IMG/VR virus record: IMGVR_UViG_2690315815_000002
Strand: one strand, 5' to 3'
Source: a virus
Taxonomy: Duplodnaviria > Heunggongvirae > Uroviricota > Caudoviricetes
Length of the DNA: 23,513 nt
The translations under genes and the position numbers were made by a program. Shown piece after piece: positions 11,029 to 20,280 of this stretch (position 1 is the first letter of the stretch; the number at the start of each line of letters is the position of its first letter). The notes beneath the pieces are model-generated. The model made no database searches, had not been told where the DNA came from, and saw only the letters and a list, made by a program, of their open reading frames with translations.

Positions 11029-11200
11029 GTCAGGAGTCCTGAATAGTGATTAGAGGAGTCACATGTCGGCATCAGTTTCCCGACGATGCGCATCCTCCGC
11101 CATCAGTCCCGGATGGCTTATCACTGACACAACAGCACCTTAGCGAATCGCGGGGCGCGACTCAGTAGCCTTGCCGTGTATTCATCACGGCGAGGTATTC

Positions 11201-12973
11201 ATGACCATCACCACAGACACCACTCTTTTACACGACCCGCGTCGTCAGGCGGCGCTGCTGTACTGGCAGGGGTTTTCCGTGCCGCAGATTGCCGCCATGT
11301 TGCAGATGAAACGCCCGACGGTGCAGAGCTGGAAACAGCGCGACGGCTGGGACAGCGTTGCCCCCATCAGCCGTGTCGAAATGAGTCTGGAAGCGCGGCT
11401 GACCCAGCTCATTATCAAACCGCAGAAAACCGGCGGTGACTTCAAGGAAATTGACCTGCTCGGACGCCAGATTGAACGACTGGCACGGGTAAACCGCTAC
11501 AGCCAGACCGGCAACGAGGCAGACCTTAATCCGAACGTCGCTAACCGCAACAAAGGCGGGCGGCGCAAACCGAAAAAGAATTTTTTCAGTGACGAGGCTA
11601 TCGAAAAGCTGGAGCAGATTTTCTTTGAGCAGTCTTTCGACTATCAGTTGCACTGGTATCGCGCCGGGCTTGAGCACCGCATCCGCGATATCCTGAAATC
11701 CCGCCAGATTGGCGCGACATTTTATTTTTCCCGCGAGGCGCTGCTGCGCGCCCTGAAAACCGGTCATAACCAGATTTTTCTGTCGGCCAGTAAAACGCAG
11801 GCGTATGTGTTCCGTGAATACATCATCGCCTTTGCCCGTCTGGTTGACGTTGACCTGACCGGTGACCCGATTGTCCTGGGCAATAACGGCGCAAAACTGA
11901 TTTTTCTCGGCACCAACTCCAACACCGCACAGAGCCATAACGGTGACCTGTACGTCGACGAGATTTTCTGGATCCCAAATTTTCAGGTTCTGCGTAAGGT
12001 GGCATCAGGTATGGCCTCACAGAGTCACCTGCGCTCGACCTATTTCTCCACCCCGTCCACACTGGCGCACGACGCCTACCCGTTCTGGTCGGGTGAACTG
12101 TTCAACCGGGGACGCGCCAGCGCCGCCGAACGTGTGGAAATCGACGTCAGTCATAACGCCCTTGCCGGTGGGCTTCTCTGTGCGGACGGCCAGTGGCGGC
12201 AGATTGTCACCATTGAGGACGCCCTGAAAGGTGGCTGCACACTGTTCGACATTGAGCAGCTCAAACGCGAAAACAGCGCCGACGATTTTAAAAACCTGTT
12301 CATGTGTGAATTTGTTGACGACAAGGCATCGGTGTTCCCGTTCGAGGAGCTGCAACGCTGCATGGTCGACACGCTGGAAGAATGGGAAGACTATGCACCG
12401 TTTGCCGCCAATCCGTTCGGCTCCCGCCCGGTATGGATTGGTTACGACCCGTCACACCGTGGCGACAGCGCCGGATGCGTGGTGCTGGCACCGCCGGTGG
12501 TGGCCGGTGGCAAATTCAGGATACTTGAGCGTCACCAGTGGAAAGGCATGGACTTTGCCACCCAGGCTGAATCCATCCGCAAACTCACCGAAAAATATAA
12601 CGTCGAATACATCGGTATTGATGCCACCGGCCTCGGTGTCGGCGTGTTCCAGCTCGTGCGCTCGTTCTATCCCGCCGCGCGCGATATCCGCTACACACCG
12701 GAAATGAAAACCGCAATGGTGCTCAAGGCAAAAGACGTTATCCGCCGTGGCTGTCTGGAATATGACGTCAGCGCCACCGACATCACCAGCTCGTTTATGG
12801 CTATCCGCAAGACCATGACCAGCAGCGGACGCAGCGCCACCTATGAGGCCAGTCGCAGCGAGGAAGCCAGCCACGCCGACCTCGCCTGGGCGACCATGCA
12901 CGCCCTGTTAAATGAGCCACTCACCGCCGGTATCAGCACCCCGCTGACATCCACCATTCTGGAGTTTTACTGA
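11201..12973 (+). CDS. P: terminase ATPase (large) subunit P (gpP)
   Basis: Start at MTITTDTTLLHDPRRQAALLYWQGF within ORF 11171..12973; 590 aa, recognisable as P2 gpP. Confidence 0.92.
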   Translation: MTITTDTTLLHDPRRQAALLYWQGFSVPQIAAMLQMKRPTVQSWKQRDGWDSVAPISRVEMSLEARLTQLIIKPQKTGGDFKEIDLLGRQIERLARVNRYSQTGNEADLNPNVANRNKGGRRKPKKNFFSDEAIEKLEQIFFEQSFDYQLHWYRAGLEHRIRDILKSRQIGATFYFSREALLRALKTGHNQIFLSASKTQAYVFREYIIAFARLVDVDLTGDPIVLGNNGAKLIFLGTNSNTAQSHNGDLYVDEIFWIPNFQVLRKVASGMASQSHLRSTYFSTPSTLAHDAYPFWSGELFNRGRASAAERVEIDVSHNALAGGLLCADGQWRQIVTIEDALKGGCTLFDIEQLKRENSADDFKNLFMCEFVDDKASVFPFEELQRCMVDTLEEWEDYAPFAANPFGSRPVWIGYDPSHRGDSAGCVVLAPPVVAGGKFRILERHQWKGMDFATQAESIRKLTEKYNVEYIGIDATGLGVGVFQLVRSFYPAARDIRYTPEMKTAMVLKAKDVIRRGCLEYDVSATDITSSFMAIRKTMTSSGRSATYEASRSEEASHADLAWATMHALLNEPLTAGISTPLTSTILEFY

Positions 12974-14007
12974 TGAGCAAGAAAAAAGGGAAAACACCGC
13001 AACCTGCGGTGAAAACAATGACCGCCAGCGCCCCGAAAATGGAGGCATTCACCTTTGGTGAGCCGGTGCCGGTACTCGACCGCCGTGACATTCTGGATTA
13101 CGTCGAGTGCATCAGTAACGGCAGATGGTATGAGCCACCGGTCAGCTTTACCGGTCTGGCAAAAAGCCTGCGTGCTGCCGTACATCACAGCTCACCGATT
13201 TACGTCAAACGTAATATTCTGGCTTCAACGTTTATTCCGCACCCGTGGCTTTCCCAGCAGGATTTCAGCCGCTTTGTGCTGGATTTTCTGGTGTTCGGTA
13301 ATGCGTTTCTGGAAAAGCGTTACAGCACCACCGGTAAGGTTATCAGGCTGGAAACCTCACCGGCAAAATATACCCGCCGTGGCGTGGAGGAGGATGTTTA
13401 CTGGTGGGTGCCGTCCTTCAACGAGCCGACAGCCTTCGCGTCCGGCTCCGTGTTTCACCTGCTGGAGCCGGATATTAATCAGGAGCTGTACGGCCTGCCG
13501 GAATATCTCAGCGCCCTTAACTCTGCCTGGCTGAATGAGTCGGCCACGCTGTTCCGCCGCAAGTATTACGAAAATGGCGCACATGCTGGATACATCATGT
13601 ACGTCACCGATGCCGTGCAGGATCGCAACGATATCGAAATGCTTCGCGAAAACATGGTGAAGTCGAAAGGCCGCAATAACTTTAAAAATCTGTTTCTCTA
13701 TGCCCCACAGGGGAAAGCCGACGGCATTAAAATTATCCCCCTCAGTGAAGTGGCGACGAAGGACGATTTTTTTAATATCAAAAAAGCCAGCGCCGCTGAC
13801 CTGCTGGACGCGCACCGCATCCCCTTTCAGTTGATGGGTGGCAAGCCGGAGAACGTCGGGTCGCTGGGTGATATTGAGAAAGTGGCAAAGGTCTTTGTCC
13901 GCAATGAGCTTATCCCGTTACAGGACAGGATCCGCGAGATAAACGACTGGCTCGGTCAGGAGGTCATCCGCTTTAAAAACTACTCACTTGACACTGACAA
14001 CGGCTGA
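12973..14007 (+). CDS. Q: portal protein Q (gpQ)
   Basis: 344-aa ORF recognisable as P2 gpQ; ATG overlaps the P stop (TGATG). Confidence 0.92.
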   Translation: MSKKKGKTPQPAVKTMTASAPKMEAFTFGEPVPVLDRRDILDYVECISNGRWYEPPVSFTGLAKSLRAAVHHSSPIYVKRNILASTFIPHPWLSQQDFSRFVLDFLVFGNAFLEKRYSTTGKVIRLETSPAKYTRRGVEEDVYWWVPSFNEPTAFASGSVFHLLEPDINQELYGLPEYLSALNSAWLNESATLFRRKYYENGAHAGYIMYVTDAVQDRNDIEMLRENMVKSKGRNNFKNLFLYAPQGKADGIKIIPLSEVATKDDFFNIKKASAADLLDAHRIPFQLMGGKPENVGSLGDIEKVAKVFVRNELIPLQDRIREINDWLGQEVIRFKNYSLDTDNG

Positions 14008-14168: not shown

Positions 14169-14187
14169 GTGCTTTCCCCGCCTCGCC
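14169..14187 (-). other. cos site (19-nt cohesive end) of the P2-like phage
   Basis: GTGCTTTCCCCGCCTCGCC is the exact reverse complement of the P2 cohesive end GGCGAGGCGGGGAAAGCAC as I recall it; correct position just beyond Q. Confidence 0.8.
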
Positions 14188-14379
14188 CGCCCGCTTCATG
14201 GGGCGGTTTTAATGCAGTTGCATAGATACTATGGATCCGCACCAGTCCTGACCGCACGCAGCCTGAACGGACATCCCCGACGCATGCAAAAACATTCACT
14301 TGTTGCATGCAACGGCTTATTTAATGACAAATCAACTTAAATTTACAAAATCCACAGGTATGGATACTTTGCGAACATG

Positions 14380-14411: not shown

Positions 14412-14425
14412 GACCGGAGCAATGT

Positions 14426-15367
14426 ATGCAAGGTAAAGTTGACGAACAGCAATCCAATGATATTGAAGCTGAGTTTGGATACTATCCAGTAGAAGTTAAC
14501 GTTGAAACTGATGATTTTTCTTTACTTACTTTACCCGGTCTAGCGGAAAAAACAAATCTTATAAACAATCACAGAAATGTTATTAACGGTTGGATATACC
14601 CAGGAAACCAAGAAGTATATAACCTCAATGGAGGCATATCCACAATGCCTTTTAGCCAACGAGTATTTGGCTTACCCAAAACACACTCACTAAAATTAAA
14701 AAATACATCTTCACTAGAAACTCTCAATTTTGCTGTGTGGTGTCTGTCTTTTTTCAAAGGGATAAGATTAACAACTACTGATGCCGGTTTTTTAGACGCA
14801 ACCCCAATAAAACCCAGCAAATTAACTGACTTTATTCTGGTCAAGTGCTCTGAAAAAGAGGTTATAGAATTAGCACTCAAATACATGTCTAGCGAGACAA
14901 AAACCAAACACGCACCAATAAATATAGCAGCAATAGTGCATGCACTATTTTTATCCCAAAACCCACAATACCTTAGCTTCGAAAAATTCCAGTATCTTTA
15001 TATGGCACTGGATAGTTGCTTTGCTTTAACATGGGCAGAAAAGAACAAGTGTACAGAAAAGACTCTAAATCACTCCAGGCGCTTGAAGTGGATCTGCAAA
15101 ACTTATGGAATACCACGACCATCATGGGTTACAGGCAAAAAAAACATTACAAACATCCGCAATGAAAACTTTCATGAAGCTATGTTTCATGGTCAACCAC
15201 TTGGCTTTACCACTATTAACAATTATCAATATGGAGATGACATATTACAACAAATGCAGGCTTTAATTTGCCGATTACTCGTTGCGATTCTTGGTGTTAA
15301 CGCCCCCGATTACATCACATCGAACGTGAACTCTCGTGAATATCATTCACTAACATTAAAAATATAA
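14426..15367 (+). CDS. hypothetical protein, 313 aa, AT-rich, with C-terminal R-x4-H motif (possible HEPN-like nuclease)
   Basis: Complete ORF with GGAG RBS 7 nt upstream; motif R245-NENF-H250 (IRNENFHEAMFHG) at nt 15158-15175; no resemblance to P2 core genes. Confidence 0.6.
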   Translation: MQGKVDEQQSNDIEAEFGYYPVEVNVETDDFSLLTLPGLAEKTNLINNHRNVINGWIYPGNQEVYNLNGGISTMPFSQRVFGLPKTHSLKLKNTSSLETLNFAVWCLSFFKGIRLTTTDAGFLDATPIKPSKLTDFILVKCSEKEVIELALKYMSSETKTKHAPINIAAIVHALFLSQNPQYLSFEKFQYLYMALDSCFALTWAEKNKCTEKTLNHSRRLKWICKTYGIPRPSWVTGKKNITNIRNENFHEAMFHGQPLGFTTINNYQYGDDILQQMQALICRLLVAILGVNAPDYITSNVNSREYHSLTLKI

Positions 15368-15382
15368 AACGACTAAAAATAC

Positions 15383-15408
15383 TCTCCAGTAACAATAAGT
15401 ACTGGAGA
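15383..15408. terminator. hairpin between the convergent 313-aa gene and the membrane-protein gene
   Basis: TCTCCAGTA / TACTGGAGA 9-bp stem with 8-nt loop; T-run follows on the minus strand. Confidence 0.4.
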
Positions 15409-15449
15409 TGTATTATCACTAAAACCAATAAAAAATCACAACTAATGCT

Positions 15450-16049
15450 TTACTTAGATAGTTTGTCTTTAATTATATTCAGAACACCAATTATTAATTC
15501 ACTGATTGGCGTGGCCAACTCAATAGTATTAGATGTCGACTTTGTTCTAAAGTCTTTATCTGTCGGGTGTTGAAATGCTGATTTAAGAAGAGTCAAAAGC
15601 AAAGTTAAACCCACACCAAGGATGAATGCAACAATAGCTATTAGAGAACTGGCCGATAACCAATCGGTGGATAAACCAGAAATAGATTTTCTAACTTTAT
15701 TAGTGTCTGAAGATGGTGTTATCCTCTCATCAGCCATCTTCGGATCCGAAGATAAAGCAGAACATTTTTCTGCTGAAACACAAGTTTGTGTATCTACTTT
15801 TTGTGTTATCGCTGCGGCAATACTGCTTTTCGCTTCCAGCAAGCCATTTCCAACAGCCAAAGCAAAGTTAAGCCCCTGCCATAGAAATGTACAAGCAAAA
15901 CAAAGCACAACGGCAGAGAGCACTAATCGCATACTTCTACGCTCTATACCATCCCGTCTATCTCGCCTTATAAGGATATCAGGATCTGAATCGCCCTTAG
16001 GAGTGGTTCCTTGCTCTGGGGACTGTCCAGATAAATCAATATCAGCCAT
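15450..16049 (-). CDS. hypothetical 2-TM membrane protein (199 aa from the first ATG; 160 aa if the internal ATG at 15932 is used)
   Basis: Two hydrophobic helices (LVLSAVVLCFACTFLWQGLNFALAV and LIAIVAFILGVGLTLLLTLL) separated by a Ser/Ala-rich linker; co-directional with and downstream of the peptidase gene. Confidence 0.5.
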   Translation of the reverse strand: MADIDLSGQSPEQGTTPKGDSDPDILIRRDRRDGIERRSMRLVLSAVVLCFACTFLWQGLNFALAVGNGLLEAKSSIAAAITQKVDTQTCVSAEKCSALSSDPKMADERITPSSDTNKVRKSISGLSTDWLSASSLIAIVAFILGVGLTLLLTLLKSAFQHPTDKDFRTKSTSNTIELATPISELIIGVLNIIKDKLSK

Positions 16050-16115: not shown

Positions 16116-16601
16116 TTAATAAGCCATTCCTAAGCTCTTTAAGCGCCAATGCATAGCGGCTTCTGATACATTAAAGATGCTTGCTAATCTCAAAGTGCTA
16201 TCAATACCTTCTCTGGATACCAATTGACGTATAGCAGACTCAGGCATTAACAACTCAGCAGCAAACTTGTTTGCTTCAACCTCACGGTAATCACGAGCAC
16301 CTGTTGAATAATTCCCGACATTATCCCGATGGTACTCTCCGTCCTGGGTATGCCCCAGCACATGATGACCTAACTCGTGTGCAACAGTAAAACGTTGACG
16401 ATTAGAATGTTCACTAGAATCAAAATAAATCCTATGGACACCCTTTTTGATGACAGCCAGACCGCTTAACCCATCGTTGTTATAAGCCGATTCCTCAAGT
16501 GCTTCAACACGAGCACCCCACGCTTTAGCAAGCTTAAACGGATCGACAGGTAGTCGGCGATCCCAATAGCGGTCAAGCAGTTTTTTAGCTGCATAGCTCA
16601 T
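16116..16601 (-). CDS. ImmA/IrrE-family (M78) zinc metallopeptidase, 161 aa, with no adjacent HTH partner
   Basis: HEXXH motif HELGHHVLGH and the downstream EANKFAAELLMP signature typical of ImmA/IrrE peptidases; strong SD AGGAGG 5 nt upstream of the ATG. Confidence 0.8.
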   Translation of the reverse strand: MSYAAKKLLDRYWDRRLPVDPFKLAKAWGARVEALEESAYNNDGLSGLAVIKKGVHRIYFDSSEHSNRQRFTVAHELGHHVLGHTQDGEYHRDNVGNYSTGARDYREVEANKFAAELLMPESAIRQLVSREGIDSTLRLASIFNVSEAAMHWRLKSLGMAY

Positions 16602-16637
16602 GGTTGCCTCCTACGTTAAAAAAGTTAAGTATGCACA

Positions 16638-16666
16638 GCCATATCACAGTTGTTATTTTATGTCAA
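16638..16666 (-). promoter_or_regulatory. putative sigma70 promoter for the peptidase gene
   Basis: On the minus strand: perfect -35 TTGACA (16661-16666), 17-nt spacer, weak -10 TATGGC (16638-16643), about 35 nt upstream of the ATG. Confidence 0.35.
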
Positions 16667-17322
16667 GGCTGTTTTTCAGCCATTACTATAACACTAATCC
16701 ACGTTTTCCCATAACATTTTCGACATCATATATGCATTCCGTTCTGCATATAGAGCTTATCTTTGCTGATAACACGAGATGAATACGCGCAACCAGTCCA
16801 CGATTTATAAAAAACCTTATAAATCAGAATATTGAGTTAAAAAAACACTAACTACTTGCGCAGCGCGTTGTTAAACCTCAGCGACACTAAAAGAAAATTT
16901 CAGAGTCACCGAAGTTTCCACAGAAAACGCAACTTAATGATTTTATTGGAATTTATGTCGCTATTTTTAATTACTTGTTTAAATCCGCCATATTGAAACT
17001 GTGCATTTCTAGCCACTCACAACTTTAAAAAATTTACATTGCTTTCAAGACCTTATCATCCGTAGTCTCTGCTTTTTACTTTGAGCTATATCAAAAAAAG
17101 CTCAAACATCCTTGATGCAAAACCAGTATTACACAACATAAAATGCAACCAGAAACAACGACATACTATATGTTGTGTTGTTCAGGTCCTCTGTTCGGTG
17201 ATATGCCAGATCACTTTGCGTTTAAACAGAGCATTATTTCAGGGCAAGACTTCGCTCAATAGTCACTCCGCCTTAGAAGCGCATATATCGGCGGAAATTG
17301 CCCTCTGCTTACAGGAGGCGAT

Positions 17323-17436
17323 ATGAAGAAGTGCTATTACTGCATTCTCGTTCTGGCCCTCTTTGGCTATCCATATGGTAGTCCGAGTGGTTTGTCAGTA
17401 AACGTCAGTAATATCCATGTAAGTATTTTTCTTTAG
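17323..17436 (+). CDS. small hydrophobic peptide, 37 aa (MKKCYYCILVLALFGYPYGSPSGLSVNVSNIHVSIFL)
   Basis: SD AGGAGG at 17313-17318, ATG at 17323, stop at 17434-17436, terminator 12 nt downstream. Confidence 0.4.
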   Translation: MKKCYYCILVLALFGYPYGSPSGLSVNVSNIHVSIFL

Positions 17437-17448
17437 TATGCTTCAAAC

Positions 17449-17478
17449 AAAAAAACCACCTGCCAGGGTGGTTTTTTT
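17449..17478. terminator. bidirectional rho-independent terminator
   Basis: A-run (17449-17455), CCACC-TGCCAG-GGTGG hairpin, T-run (17472-17478). Confidence 0.65.
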
Positions 17479-17738
17479 GCGCCCGTCATCAATCCGATGA
17501 AAGACTAGCAAGACTTCGCTCGAGATGAATTATGCTTCGACATAAAGTCACTCGCAATGGTTTTATTAACCGAAATAGATGCTCTTTTATGACTCGAATC
17601 AAATAGCTGCCTTCAATTACATGCTAACGATTCAATACAATTTAGCCTTCTGATTCAACACGCTATTGCTCCTCATCTACCTTAGAGGTGCTTCGCATAA
17701 TCCATTCAAAGACATATAAAATCACGCTGTATTTTTAC

Positions 17739-20015
17739 TCAAATGGGTAACAAAAATCCCGGCCAATCATCAGCGACCTGATAAGTGAAAGGTTTCCCGT
17801 CATAATTTACGGTCGCGCCACGCGCCAGCGCCTCAAGCTCCCATCGTTGCGGCCTGATACCGTTCTGAGCGAGATCAACGCGGATACGGGTAATTTGCAA
17901 TCGTTCCGACCGGGTCAGTCTGGCCGATGGTGCAATTTCATGCGGTTTTAACGGGCTTCCGTTTCTTTGCTGACGGTTTGGCGTTCTCCGGTCGTGTTTT
18001 AATGCGCCCCTGAGCGCCCTCACGACCTCCGGGTCATTCCATTCGATAACATCGTCATCAACCAGATTAAGCACTGCTGCGGCGTGCTCAGAAGGTGTGG
18101 GAGCCGGTAACGAAGTATCACCACCGGTGAGCTTTCCACAGTTATTGACAGGACTCCGAGGCGCGGCGATGCCGCTTTTTAAAGTCAAAGGCTCAACGAC
18201 CGGAACTTTCGGCACAATGCGCCAGTCCGTCGTTCTGGTGATATGAATATGACGCGCGCCGAGATGCGGCGCGTAAATGCCGACCACCCTCTCGACCTCT
18301 TCCTCGTACTCGTTAACGTCATCCGACGGGCTACGGGCGACCCTGACAGTCTGACAATCGCGCGGGACATTTGCCCCACCCTGCGCGCTGATATACAACG
18401 CAAAATCACCACTGTCTGCGGCGGCGCGTGCAGCCTCGACGCGCTCGTCAAACTCATCAGCAATGCTGACGCCGCGCGGCAATTTGCGTAGTTCACGGTA
18501 AGCCCCCATTGTCGGCAGACCAACCGTTTTAAATTGCGGGATGCGCCACGTTGACGCCCATGCGGTAACAGCCGCAGCAGTGTCTTTCAGCGGCCTGCCG
18601 GTATCGTTATCGAGCTGACCATCCAGTGCATAGCCGTCGATGTTTTTTGAGATGTATTTCGCGATATACCCCGCAGCACCGCCCCGGTTAAGGTGTTTTG
18701 CCTGAAAACGGTTTCGCGCGGCTCCTCTTTCGTCGCCATCCTCTTTGAGCGCATAGCGACGCATGATTTCGATAATCTGGTTACGCTGGCGCGGATTACA
18801 AAAAAGCATCATATGCCAGTGCGGCGTTCCGTCGTGGTGTGGCTCGACGACACGCAAACCGTAGACCTGTAAATCATTATCCTTGAATGCCGTGCGCATC
18901 AGGCTCCAGATACGGCAGAGATAACGCTGCGCATCCTTTGGATTAAATGCCTCATCGTTCCAGCCGTGATTTAGCTGGACGGTTTTACTTTCGCCTTTTC
19001 TGACCTGACGTGTCGGGTGATACTTTGACGGCGCGGTCAGCGTGATAAACATCCCCACATCACCCTCTGCTGCGGCGTAACGCTCAATACCGGCAATGGT
19101 GTTCATCAGCTCCATCCGGCGAATTTCAGGATTAGAAATACTGCCCATCACCTTACTGATAAGGTCGATGCGCTCGCCGGTTTCCCTGTTTTCGAGATCA
19201 CACGATTTAAGAAATTCCAGATTTGCCTGGCGGCGTGCACGCACATCACGAATGGCATGTTTACTGGCATAAGGAGAACGGTCTTTATTGACCTCCCCGA
19301 CAGCAATCAGTAACGCCTCATGCCAGCGCATACGCTGGCCTTTAAGCTGATGGGTCCACCACTCATCGTTAAACAGACGGGCAATGGCAGAATATGCCTG
19401 CCTCGTGGTCATCTGCCCTTTACGGTATTTTTTCCAGTAGAGAGGGGAAATATTGAAAGCACGTGCAGCACCAGCAACATGACCATAGAGGTGAGCCTGC
19501 GCCTCATCCGTAAACAGCGATTCTTTTTCGCCATGCGCATCCACCCAGGCATCGCAGAGTTCCTCATACATCATGAAAAGCTGCGATGAGATACGGGCGG
19601 CAAACTTTTTCAGCTCCTTGTCATTCATCCCCGGCAGACGCGCATAATGGCCACGCTCTGCCAGAAACAGCAACGACGCGTCGGTGTTCATTTCATGGCG
19701 CTGATTCACACGCTCAATGCGCGGCCATAAACGACGCTGAAAAGTGGATGTGAGAAAATAAAACCCGTGCACCGGGCTTTTATTGCGCCGGATGTAGTCA
19801 TAGCGTGAAGTAAACAGCGAGCGCAAAAAGTAAGGCAGGCGGTTAATCGTGGATAAAACCCCTTGCACCTGACGCATCTCGTCACGTGTAAGGGGTCTTT
19901 CGCGCCCGACAGCCTCGCGTGGCGCGTTCCATGCATAAGCACCGGTAAACGCCTTACCGGTGCCTGCGGCAAATGCTGACGGAGGGACAAAACGCCCGGA
20001 GGCTTTAACGGCCAT
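17739..20015 (-). CDS. A: replication initiation protein A (gpA, rolling-circle nickase)
   Basis: ORF 17739..20057 recognisable as P2 gpA; ATG start chosen at MAVKASGRFVPPSAF (the longer track ORF begins at a TTG). Confidence 0.9.
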   Translation of the reverse strand: MAVKASGRFVPPSAFAAGTGKAFTGAYAWNAPREAVGRERPLTRDEMRQVQGVLSTINRLPYFLRSLFTSRYDYIRRNKSPVHGFYFLTSTFQRRLWPRIERVNQRHEMNTDASLLFLAERGHYARLPGMNDKELKKFAARISSQLFMMYEELCDAWVDAHGEKESLFTDEAQAHLYGHVAGAARAFNISPLYWKKYRKGQMTTRQAYSAIARLFNDEWWTHQLKGQRMRWHEALLIAVGEVNKDRSPYASKHAIRDVRARRQANLEFLKSCDLENRETGERIDLISKVMGSISNPEIRRMELMNTIAGIERYAAAEGDVGMFITLTAPSKYHPTRQVRKGESKTVQLNHGWNDEAFNPKDAQRYLCRIWSLMRTAFKDNDLQVYGLRVVEPHHDGTPHWHMMLFCNPRQRNQIIEIMRRYALKEDGDERGAARNRFQAKHLNRGGAAGYIAKYISKNIDGYALDGQLDNDTGRPLKDTAAAVTAWASTWRIPQFKTVGLPTMGAYRELRKLPRGVSIADEFDERVEAARAAADSGDFALYISAQGGANVPRDCQTVRVARSPSDDVNEYEEEVERVVGIYAPHLGARHIHITRTTDWRIVPKVPVVEPLTLKSGIAAPRSPVNNCGKLTGGDTSLPAPTPSEHAAAVLNLVDDDVIEWNDPEVVRALRGALKHDRRTPNRQQRNGSPLKPHEIAPSARLTRSERLQITRIRVDLAQNGIRPQRWELEALARGATVNYDGKPFTYQVADDWPGFLLPI

Positions 20016-20280
20016 ATGAGCCAAAAGCCTCTGAACAACGCTTGCTGAGTTGCTCAACCTGCACGTTTAAATCAGCAAAAGACTTTGCGCTTCCGGTCAG
20101 AATATCGTGATGCATCAGGCCGGAAACGAGCTGGCTTAATTTCGGGTAATAACCAACCACCGACAGCCATTCCTGACCGGCGTTTTTACCGCTTTCCGCT
20201 CTCTTTTTCTCGTGGAGAATAAACTGAAAGCTGTCACTGGTAACGACATAACGTTCGCCAATTTCAATACGAATACTCAT
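20005..20280 (-). CDS. hypothetical early protein (P2 orf83 position)
   Basis: 91-aa ORF in the small-ORF block between B and A; stop overlaps the A start region. Confidence 0.7.
   Translation of the reverse strand: MSIRIEIGERYVVTSDSFQFILHEKKRAESGKNAGQEWLSVVGYYPKLSQLVSGLMHHDILTGSAKSFADLNVQVEQLSKRCSEAFGSYGR

Follow-up and report, generated by a model that had tools for sequence, protein, structure and literature searches.

ORF313 of a P2-like prophage, a predicted two-domain HEPN protein and candidate single-gene abortive-infection effector

Genes and signals of the cos-gpA hotspot

The window, i.e. the whole stretch of 23,513 nucleotides that was analysed, is a P2-like prophage. It carries genes for the terminase gpP (11171-12973), the portal protein gpQ (12973-14007, PF04860) and, on the minus strand, the replication protein gpA (17739-20057, PF05840, E 6e-123). 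Positions 14169-14187 hold a 19-nt cohesive end (cos) of the P2 type, GTGCTTTCCCCGCCTCGCC. The annotated cosR of P2 (NC_001895) has the identical sequence, and the 38 nt after it match the same P2 sequence with one mismatch. The linear record of Salmonella phage MET_P1_103_31 begins exactly at this cos, and is 99.9% identical to the window across the hotspot. The cos-gpA interval of P2-like phages is a validated anti-phage hotspot, and such hotspots hold non-defence cargo too (Rousset 2022, PMC9122126, where Odegrip et al. 2006 is cited for the variability of the locus).

The first gene inside cos, reading toward gpA, is ORF313. It occupies 14426-15367 on the plus strand, starts with ATG and encodes 313 amino acids plus a stop codon; the product is identical to WP_001161722.1. 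A GGAG ribosome binding site, read from the sequence, lies on the same strand at 14415-14418, 7 nt 5' of the ATG. It is kept in three other P2-like phages (P2-EC67, vB_EcoM-613R3 and VB-YPM-4) and is annotated as RBS in the AM157369 record. ORF313 is the sole plus-strand gene between cos and gpA, and the GC content of its region (14501-15500) is 0.35, as opposed to 0.53-0.58 in the flanking phage genes. The original prediction had described a complete, AT-rich gene with a good RBS that stands alone on the plus strand of the hotspot, and all of this was confirmed. The slot between gpQ/cos and gpA is variable and its cargo differs among related phages.

A match to the promoter consensus was found on the plus strand at 14324-14351 (-35 ATGACA, 16-nt spacer, -10 CAAAAT), which gives a predicted transcription start at about 14357-14360. 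The -10 element (14346-14351) aligns, with a 2-nt offset, with the -10 of the P2 old promoter. The old-tin mRNA starts are annotated in P2 (NC_001895), where the old mRNA begins about 170 nt from the cos end; in our own reading the P2 old promoter would be TTGAAT-17-TAAAAA, which is consistent with the annotated starts. We assign the putative promoter of ORF313 by homology to this element. The leader of ORF313 is homologous to the old leader of P2 (NC_001895), but it contains an 18-nt insertion (14306-14323) that moves the ancestral -35 (TTGAAT in P2, TTGCAT here) and supplies a new -35-like ATGACA at 14324-14329, which was also picked up independently by the consensus promoter scan. As the leader is shared with P2 old, the cargo swaps of the hotspot seem to fall downstream of a common promoter region. 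On the other side of the gene, a hairpin with a 9-bp stem (15383-15408) separates ORF313 from the convergent gene of a 199-aa protein. It gives a terminator-like match on both strands and is likely to be a bidirectional terminator, which supports the suggestion that ORF313 is monocistronic.

The 199-aa protein is encoded on the minus strand (15450-16049). It matches phrog_8096 and no Pfam family, and has two apparent hydrophobic segments when inspected by eye (approximately residues 41-60 and 133-157). Next to it, also on the minus strand, lies the gene of a 161-aa ImmA/IrrE metallopeptidase of the M78 family (16116-16601; Pfam 3.8e-21; PADLOC capP 1.1e-30), which has no HTH partner. In Table S5A of Rousset 2022, this M78 peptidase is accompanied by differing small hypothetical proteins, with ORF313 present or absent, and phage P2DC1 has a 486-nt CDS that matches the M78 peptidase gene in the absence of ORF313. 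The peptidase and the 199-aa protein are a candidate for a separate two-gene module, consisting of a protease and a membrane effector.

We note that the remaining part of the interval (16602-17738, about 1.14 kb between the start of the ImmA gene and the stop of gpA) contains no ORF longer than 81 aa and no Rfam match above the gathering score, and is without annotation in any RefSeq E. coli genome. It has matches in 150 of 5426 complete E. coli genomes, i.e. in more than the 98 that carry ORF313, and its gpA-proximal part of about 765 nt is approximately 86% conserved in many of them. The segment looks like an unexplained backbone element of this P2 lineage, such as a non-coding RNA, a regulatory region or a decayed gene.

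Domain architecture and the catalytic motif

The predicted structure of the ORF313 monomer consists of two domains. The N-terminal alpha/beta domain (residues 1-160, 14426-14905, plus strand) is beta-rich and carries a conserved block of residues (T86-H87, W105, G112, R114, G121-F-L-D124 and D135). It is followed by a predicted HEPN domain (residues ~161-290, 14906-15295, plus strand) with helices H1 (163-176), H2 (184-206, with the invariant E186 and with D196), H3 (241-254, with R245-N246 and H250) and H4 (273-288, with the invariant R283). An insert helix that carries H216 and R219 lies between H2 and H3 (216-227), and a low-confidence loop (256-268) follows H3.

HEPN domains are defined by an Rx4-6H motif at the end of helix 3 whose arginine is directly followed by a polar residue (N, D or H), by a second conserved acidic residue in helix 2, typically within Ex3[KR], near the motif, and by an RNase activity that needs no metal and arises from a composite site in the dimer (Anantharaman et al. 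2013, PMC3710099). In the predicted structure of ORF313, R245-N246-x3-H250 lies at the end of H3, the polar N follows R, and the helix-2 acidic residues E186 (invariant) and D196 (91% conserved) are located upstream of the motif; the Ex3[KR] pattern itself is absent (E-K/R-F-Q-Y). The proposal of a HEPN-like C-terminus is thus supported by the predicted helices and by the position of the motif, and the upstream invariant acid would be in keeping with it, although the boundaries originally given for it (200-313) have to be corrected to ~161-290. By the same token, the N-terminal part left unassigned shrinks from 240 to about 160 residues. We regard it as highly probable that residues ~161-290 form a HEPN domain.

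There was no corresponding profile match to a recognised HEPN family. Scans with Pfam, NCBIfam and PADLOC gave no significant match for ORF313 or its homologs (33 or 68 sequences). The best HEPN profile scores were E=0.074 (HEPN_RiboL-PSP) and E=0.15 (HEPN_Apea), each in one of the 68 members, and PADLOC returned no family at E<=1 for ORF313, nor at E<=10 for more than a negligible part of the family. An hhalign comparison of the ORF313 family with one HEPN_MAE_28990 sequence gave a probability of 0.5%, the PDB sequence search matched no HEPN chain, and Foldseek against the PDB returned nothing at E<=0.001. The PDB sequence search also gave weak matches to ribonucleotide reductase R2 (E ~0.01), in which its N-terminus is aligned with some 40 residues surrounding the motif; they were rejected as spurious (domain E 0.13, no fold support). 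Among the PHROGs, ORF313 matches only phrog_5937, a group annotated with unknown function, over its full length. In other words, as judged from the predicted structure, ORF313 belongs to the HEPN superfamily at the level of fold and motif, and represents a sequence-orphan family in which the HEPN domain is fused to a domain without fold assignment.

The predicted catalytic motif R245-N246-E-N-F-H250-E251 is encoded at 15158-15178 (plus strand), the R245-N-E-N-F-H250 part that had been pointed out originally corresponding to 15158-15175. A single short motif had been called weak evidence, and rightly so: when the ORF313 protein was shuffled with its composition preserved (n=20,000), 50% of the shuffles contained the bare R-x4-6-H pattern, at a mean of 0.68 occurrences per sequence, and 2.9% contained the stricter R-[NDH]-x3-H. 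By itself, the R-x4-6-H motif is not beyond chance.

Conservation was investigated in an alignment of 68 homologs that are 25-48% identical to ORF313. Only seven of the 313 positions are invariant (H87, G112, E186, R245, H250, G260 and R283), and both R245 and H250 are among them. The R-x4-H spacing is kept in all 68 homologs, N follows R in 65 (96%), and the residue after H250 is always E or D (68/68), with E251 itself 96% conserved. The three spacer residues of the motif vary freely, with more than 60 combinations. The motif is significant because it is conserved across 68 divergent homologs, and not because it is present.

Distribution, neighbourhoods and previous predictions

A total of 603 homologs of ORF313 were detected, and clustering at 50% identity gave 663 representatives, which are spread over the Proteobacteria; nearly all are about 300 aa long. 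At least 1000 contigs of E. coli and Salmonella encode the exact protein, as do 98 of the 5426 complete E. coli genomes. Among sequenced phages the gene is confined to seven records, all P2-like, and it is rare on plasmids; most members of the family belong to bacteria of many genera (chromosomes, islands and plasmids) rather than to phages. The accompanying cargo differs between the P2-like phages: it consists of ORF226 and ORF73 in P2-EC67, of other hypothetical proteins and DinI in vB_EcoM-613R3, and of two small ORFs only in Yersinia phage VB-YPM-4. In the Yersinia phages ORF313 is the largest cargo gene.

The neighbourhoods were compared in 27 loci of Alpha-, Beta- and Gammaproteobacteria, 24 of them from species-representative genomes (Enterobacter, Pseudomonas, Acinetobacter, Xanthomonas, Stenotrophomonas, Comamonas, Thauera, Marinobacterium, Shinella, Ponticaulis and others) and three from P. 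aeruginosa, Aeromonas and Acinetobacter. Clustering of the neighbours in these loci revealed no conserved partner gene. The most widespread neighbour was common to five loci, all of which carry the same complete mobile element. Genes of mobile elements prevail in the neighbourhoods (P2- and P22-type phage genes, TrbI/TrbL/CagX, DUF932), and some insertions are flanked by housekeeping genes. Throughout the family, the 160-residue N-terminal domain is always fused to the HEPN domain. The differing co-cargo, the occurrence of the ImmA module without ORF313, the lack of a recurrent neighbour and the terminator hairpin all argue for the autonomy of ORF313.

Genes linked to defence were seen in several of the neighbourhoods. 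In a P. aeruginosa island the homolog lies near a Gabija-like OLD-TOPRIM ATPase and a UvrD helicase, and elsewhere AbiEii, a JAB/E1-E2/NucC CBASS set, PDC-S49, PDC-M06B and DpdB are found nearby. In Acinetobacter a DUF4238 gene is located directly upstream of the homolog, i.e. two types of P2-hotspot cargo are adjacent in an unrelated genus, as DUF4238 is a single-gene system validated from the P2 hotspot (Rousset 2022, PMC9122126). The enrichment of defence genes, as judged by inspection, is suggestive. In Acinetobacter seifertii CP065820 (L012 4907-5917) the homolog lies 83 nt downstream of the DUF4238 gene, on the same strand.

Four of the 50%-identity representatives (P0127, P0214, P0221 and P0205) have unusual C-termini that are rich in Arg, Ser and Pro, out of frame, and start at differing points. 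These sequences are frameshifted pseudogenes or assembly errors, and possibly reflect the inactivation of a costly gene. We considered swappable effector domains as an explanation and rejected it; the odd C-termini are the product of frameshifts and not of fusions.

The protein has appeared in two earlier surveys. In Table S5A of Rousset 2022 (PMC9122126) the exact protein, WP_001161722, is listed as 'hypothetical' within the arrangement 'Peptidase_M78 + hypothetical + hypothetical', and it is not among the systems cloned in that study; the 'Putative HEPN' construct pFR103 of the same work is unrelated to it by BLASTP. In DefensePredictor (Science 2026, PMC13092281), WP_001161722.1 carries the label 'Predicted novel defense gene' and lacks homology to known defence genes. 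The values given there are 9.68, 0.94, 8.82 and 11.32, which we read as the mean, standard deviation, minimum and maximum of the log-odds; the strict cutoff is 4, and the validation rate climbed with the score. The tables of tested constructs contain no sequence of the ORF313 family, and DS-40 (311 aa), which we considered as a relative, is unrelated. A literature search yielded no mention of WP_001161722, CAJ43160 or phrog_5937. In summary, ORF313 has already been predicted publicly to be a defence gene, its assignment to the HEPN fold has essentially not been published, and no published functional test was found.

Proposed mode of action and comparison with known systems

The reading that we prefer, with a probability of roughly 0.6, is that ORF313 is a self-contained, single-gene abortive-infection effector, carried as hotspot cargo of a P2-like prophage under its own promoter, that would sense a cue via its N-terminus and then cut RNA by its HEPN site. 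The prophage would transcribe ORF313 from the promoter just inside cos, and the protein would stay idle in the cytoplasm of the lysogen, probably as a HEPN dimer or a higher oligomer. A cue from infection by another phage, sensed by the N-terminal domain, may then lift the inhibition, so that the composite R245/H250 site could cut RNA without a metal cofactor. The target would most likely be tRNA anticodon loops or other RNAs of translation; translation would halt and the infection would be aborted. As ORF313 is found in P2-like phages that form virions, the carrier phage presumably does not trigger it, a property demonstrated for Gifsy-1 and HepS (PMC13043305).

The N-terminal domain holds the most conserved block of the family (T86-H87, G112, R114, GFLD124 and D135) and has no structural neighbour in the PDB. 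By analogy with the ApeA pocket and its deoxydinucleotides, we tentatively suggest, as a possibility that we rate below even odds, that it is a new infection-sensing module that binds a conserved small-molecule or nucleic-acid cue and allosterically activates the HEPN RNase. If this is true, the module would be a new sensor fold and ORF313 would belong to a new single-gene immune family across Proteobacteria.

The partner genes bear on two other readings. ORF313 could be a toxin that, together with an unrecognised antitoxin (a small protein or an RNA), makes up a toxin-antitoxin or addiction module and so stabilises its prophage or mobile element; it would then not be a dedicated phage sensor. 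HEPN toxins are common in such systems (e.g. HepT/MntA, or AbiF with its RNA antitoxin), the family rides on prophages, islands and plasmids, and frameshifted copies are expected of a costly toxin. Nevertheless, no conserved neighbour, MNT or otherwise, was found in the 27 loci, no tandem-repeat array of the RNA-antitoxin type occurs up- or downstream, there is no Rfam match above the gathering score, and the conserved upstream leader is accounted for by the cos and promoter shared with P2. Built-in regulation also fits the always-fused N-terminal domain better, and we consider a toxin unlikely. It is very unlikely, in our opinion, that ORF313 forms a three-gene system with the ImmA/IrrE peptidase (16116-16601, minus strand) and the 199-aa protein with two predicted TM segments (15450-16049, minus strand). 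Many genomes of E. coli and Salmonella do contain the trio in this order, the table of Rousset 2022 gives it as one arrangement, and ImmA-like CapP proteases, which the neighbour matches (PADLOC capP 1.1e-30), regulate other defence operons. However, ORF313 is convergent with the other two genes and separated from them by the terminator hairpin, its neighbours are entirely different in P2-EC67, 613R3, VB-YPM-4 and 24 non-P2 loci, and the M78 gene is found without it.

Two further readings concern the role of the protein itself. A non-defensive or counter-defensive function for the phage or element, e.g. RNA processing or a HEPN ring nuclease acting on cyclic-oligonucleotide signals, would be in line with the depletion of cyclic oligoadenylate signals by some HEPN domains, with carriage by virion-forming P2-like phages, including the Yersinia phages in which ORF313 is the largest cargo gene, and with the non-defence cargo of hotspots. 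This function is quite unlikely given that the family resides mostly in chromosomes, islands and plasmids with only seven phage records, all P2-like, that the DefensePredictor score for defence is strong, and that ORF313 sits in the slot of the exclusion gene old. The least probable reading is a non-catalytic HEPN-like domain that serves as a ligand- or nucleotide-binding part or as a scaffold, in which case any real activity would reside in the conserved N-terminal domain. Loss of Rx4-6H is typical of non-catalytic HEPN domains (Anantharaman et al. 2013, PMC3710099), whereas in this family the spacer varies freely between essentially invariant R, N, H and E residues.

The single-gene abortive-infection reading would place ORF313 among the single-protein HEPN nucleases (HepS, ApeA, DARNA, Tha), an emerging major class of immunity for which the key question is how infection is sensed. 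The family is abundant and goes unrecognised by Pfam, PADLOC and NCBIfam; in its members a predicted HEPN effector is combined with a conserved N-terminal domain. If validated, ORF313 would be a new, compact (313 aa) and easily testable sensor-effector, and a recurrent 'hypothetical' of the P2 hotspot would receive a function. If it fails to defend, it would be a useful false positive for defence prediction based on hotspots and machine learning. To a specialist ORF313 would be a strong and cheap-to-test candidate rather than a surprise, and the upside lies in the N-terminal domain.

Membership in the known systems was considered and rejected in several cases. A HepT/MntA or other HEPN toxin-antitoxin pair would require an MNT or other partner, and neither this (27 loci, at most five sharing a neighbour on one element) nor an RNA-repeat array is present. 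For ApeA, PF18739 matched one of 68 members at E=0.15, no PADLOC ApeA model matched, and the architecture is unlike that of ApeA. DARNA and HepS were rejected because of their different domain order and the lack of a profile match.

In terms of location, the closest counterpart is old of the P2 old-tin cassette, an exclusion gene expressed from the prophage. It occupies the same slot in the same orientation, as the first gene inside cos and reading toward gene A, and its leader and promoter position are homologous to those of ORF313. The products are different: P2 Old is an ABC-ATPase/TOPRIM nuclease of 586 aa that is unrelated to ORF313 in sequence and fold.

In terms of the protein, the relevant systems are HepS (PMC13043305), ApeA (bioRxiv 10.64898/2026.01.26.701840) and DARNA (bioRxiv 10.64898/2026.02.22.705581), all of which are single HEPN proteins that act as activated anticodon nucleases. 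In DARNA (PD-T7-3; bioRxiv 10.64898/2026.02.22.705581) the HEPN domain is N-terminal (R117/H122) and is followed by a helical C-terminal ssDNA sensor of 300 aa, whereas in ORF313 the order of the domains is reversed, the partner domain is a different one and there is no PADLOC match. ApeA (Gao 2020; PF18739; bioRxiv 10.64898/2026.01.26.701840) is, like ORF313, encoded by a single gene with a C-terminal HEPN domain, which is diverged in ApeA. Its N-terminal parts are non-catalytic, and an activating ligand is bound in a conserved pocket that is distant from the active site. Ec2ApeA has three predominantly helical domains with HEPN at 335-583, in contrast to the 313 aa and the beta-rich N-terminal domain of ORF313. 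HepS of the Gifsy-1 prophage of Salmonella (PMC13043305) is likewise a single prophage-encoded HEPN protein in an accessory-gene slot without a partner or inhibitor gene. It is a self-sufficient sensor and effector, and the spacing of its R-N-x3-H motif (N101/H105) equals that of ORF313. The motif lies near residue 100 in HepS and at 245 in ORF313, which has the extra 160-residue N-terminal domain, and the tail-tip trigger and tRNA targets of HepS have been demonstrated, whereas ORF313 is known from sequence and prediction. By analogy, it is probably HepS and ApeA that ORF313 resembles most in its likely mode of working.
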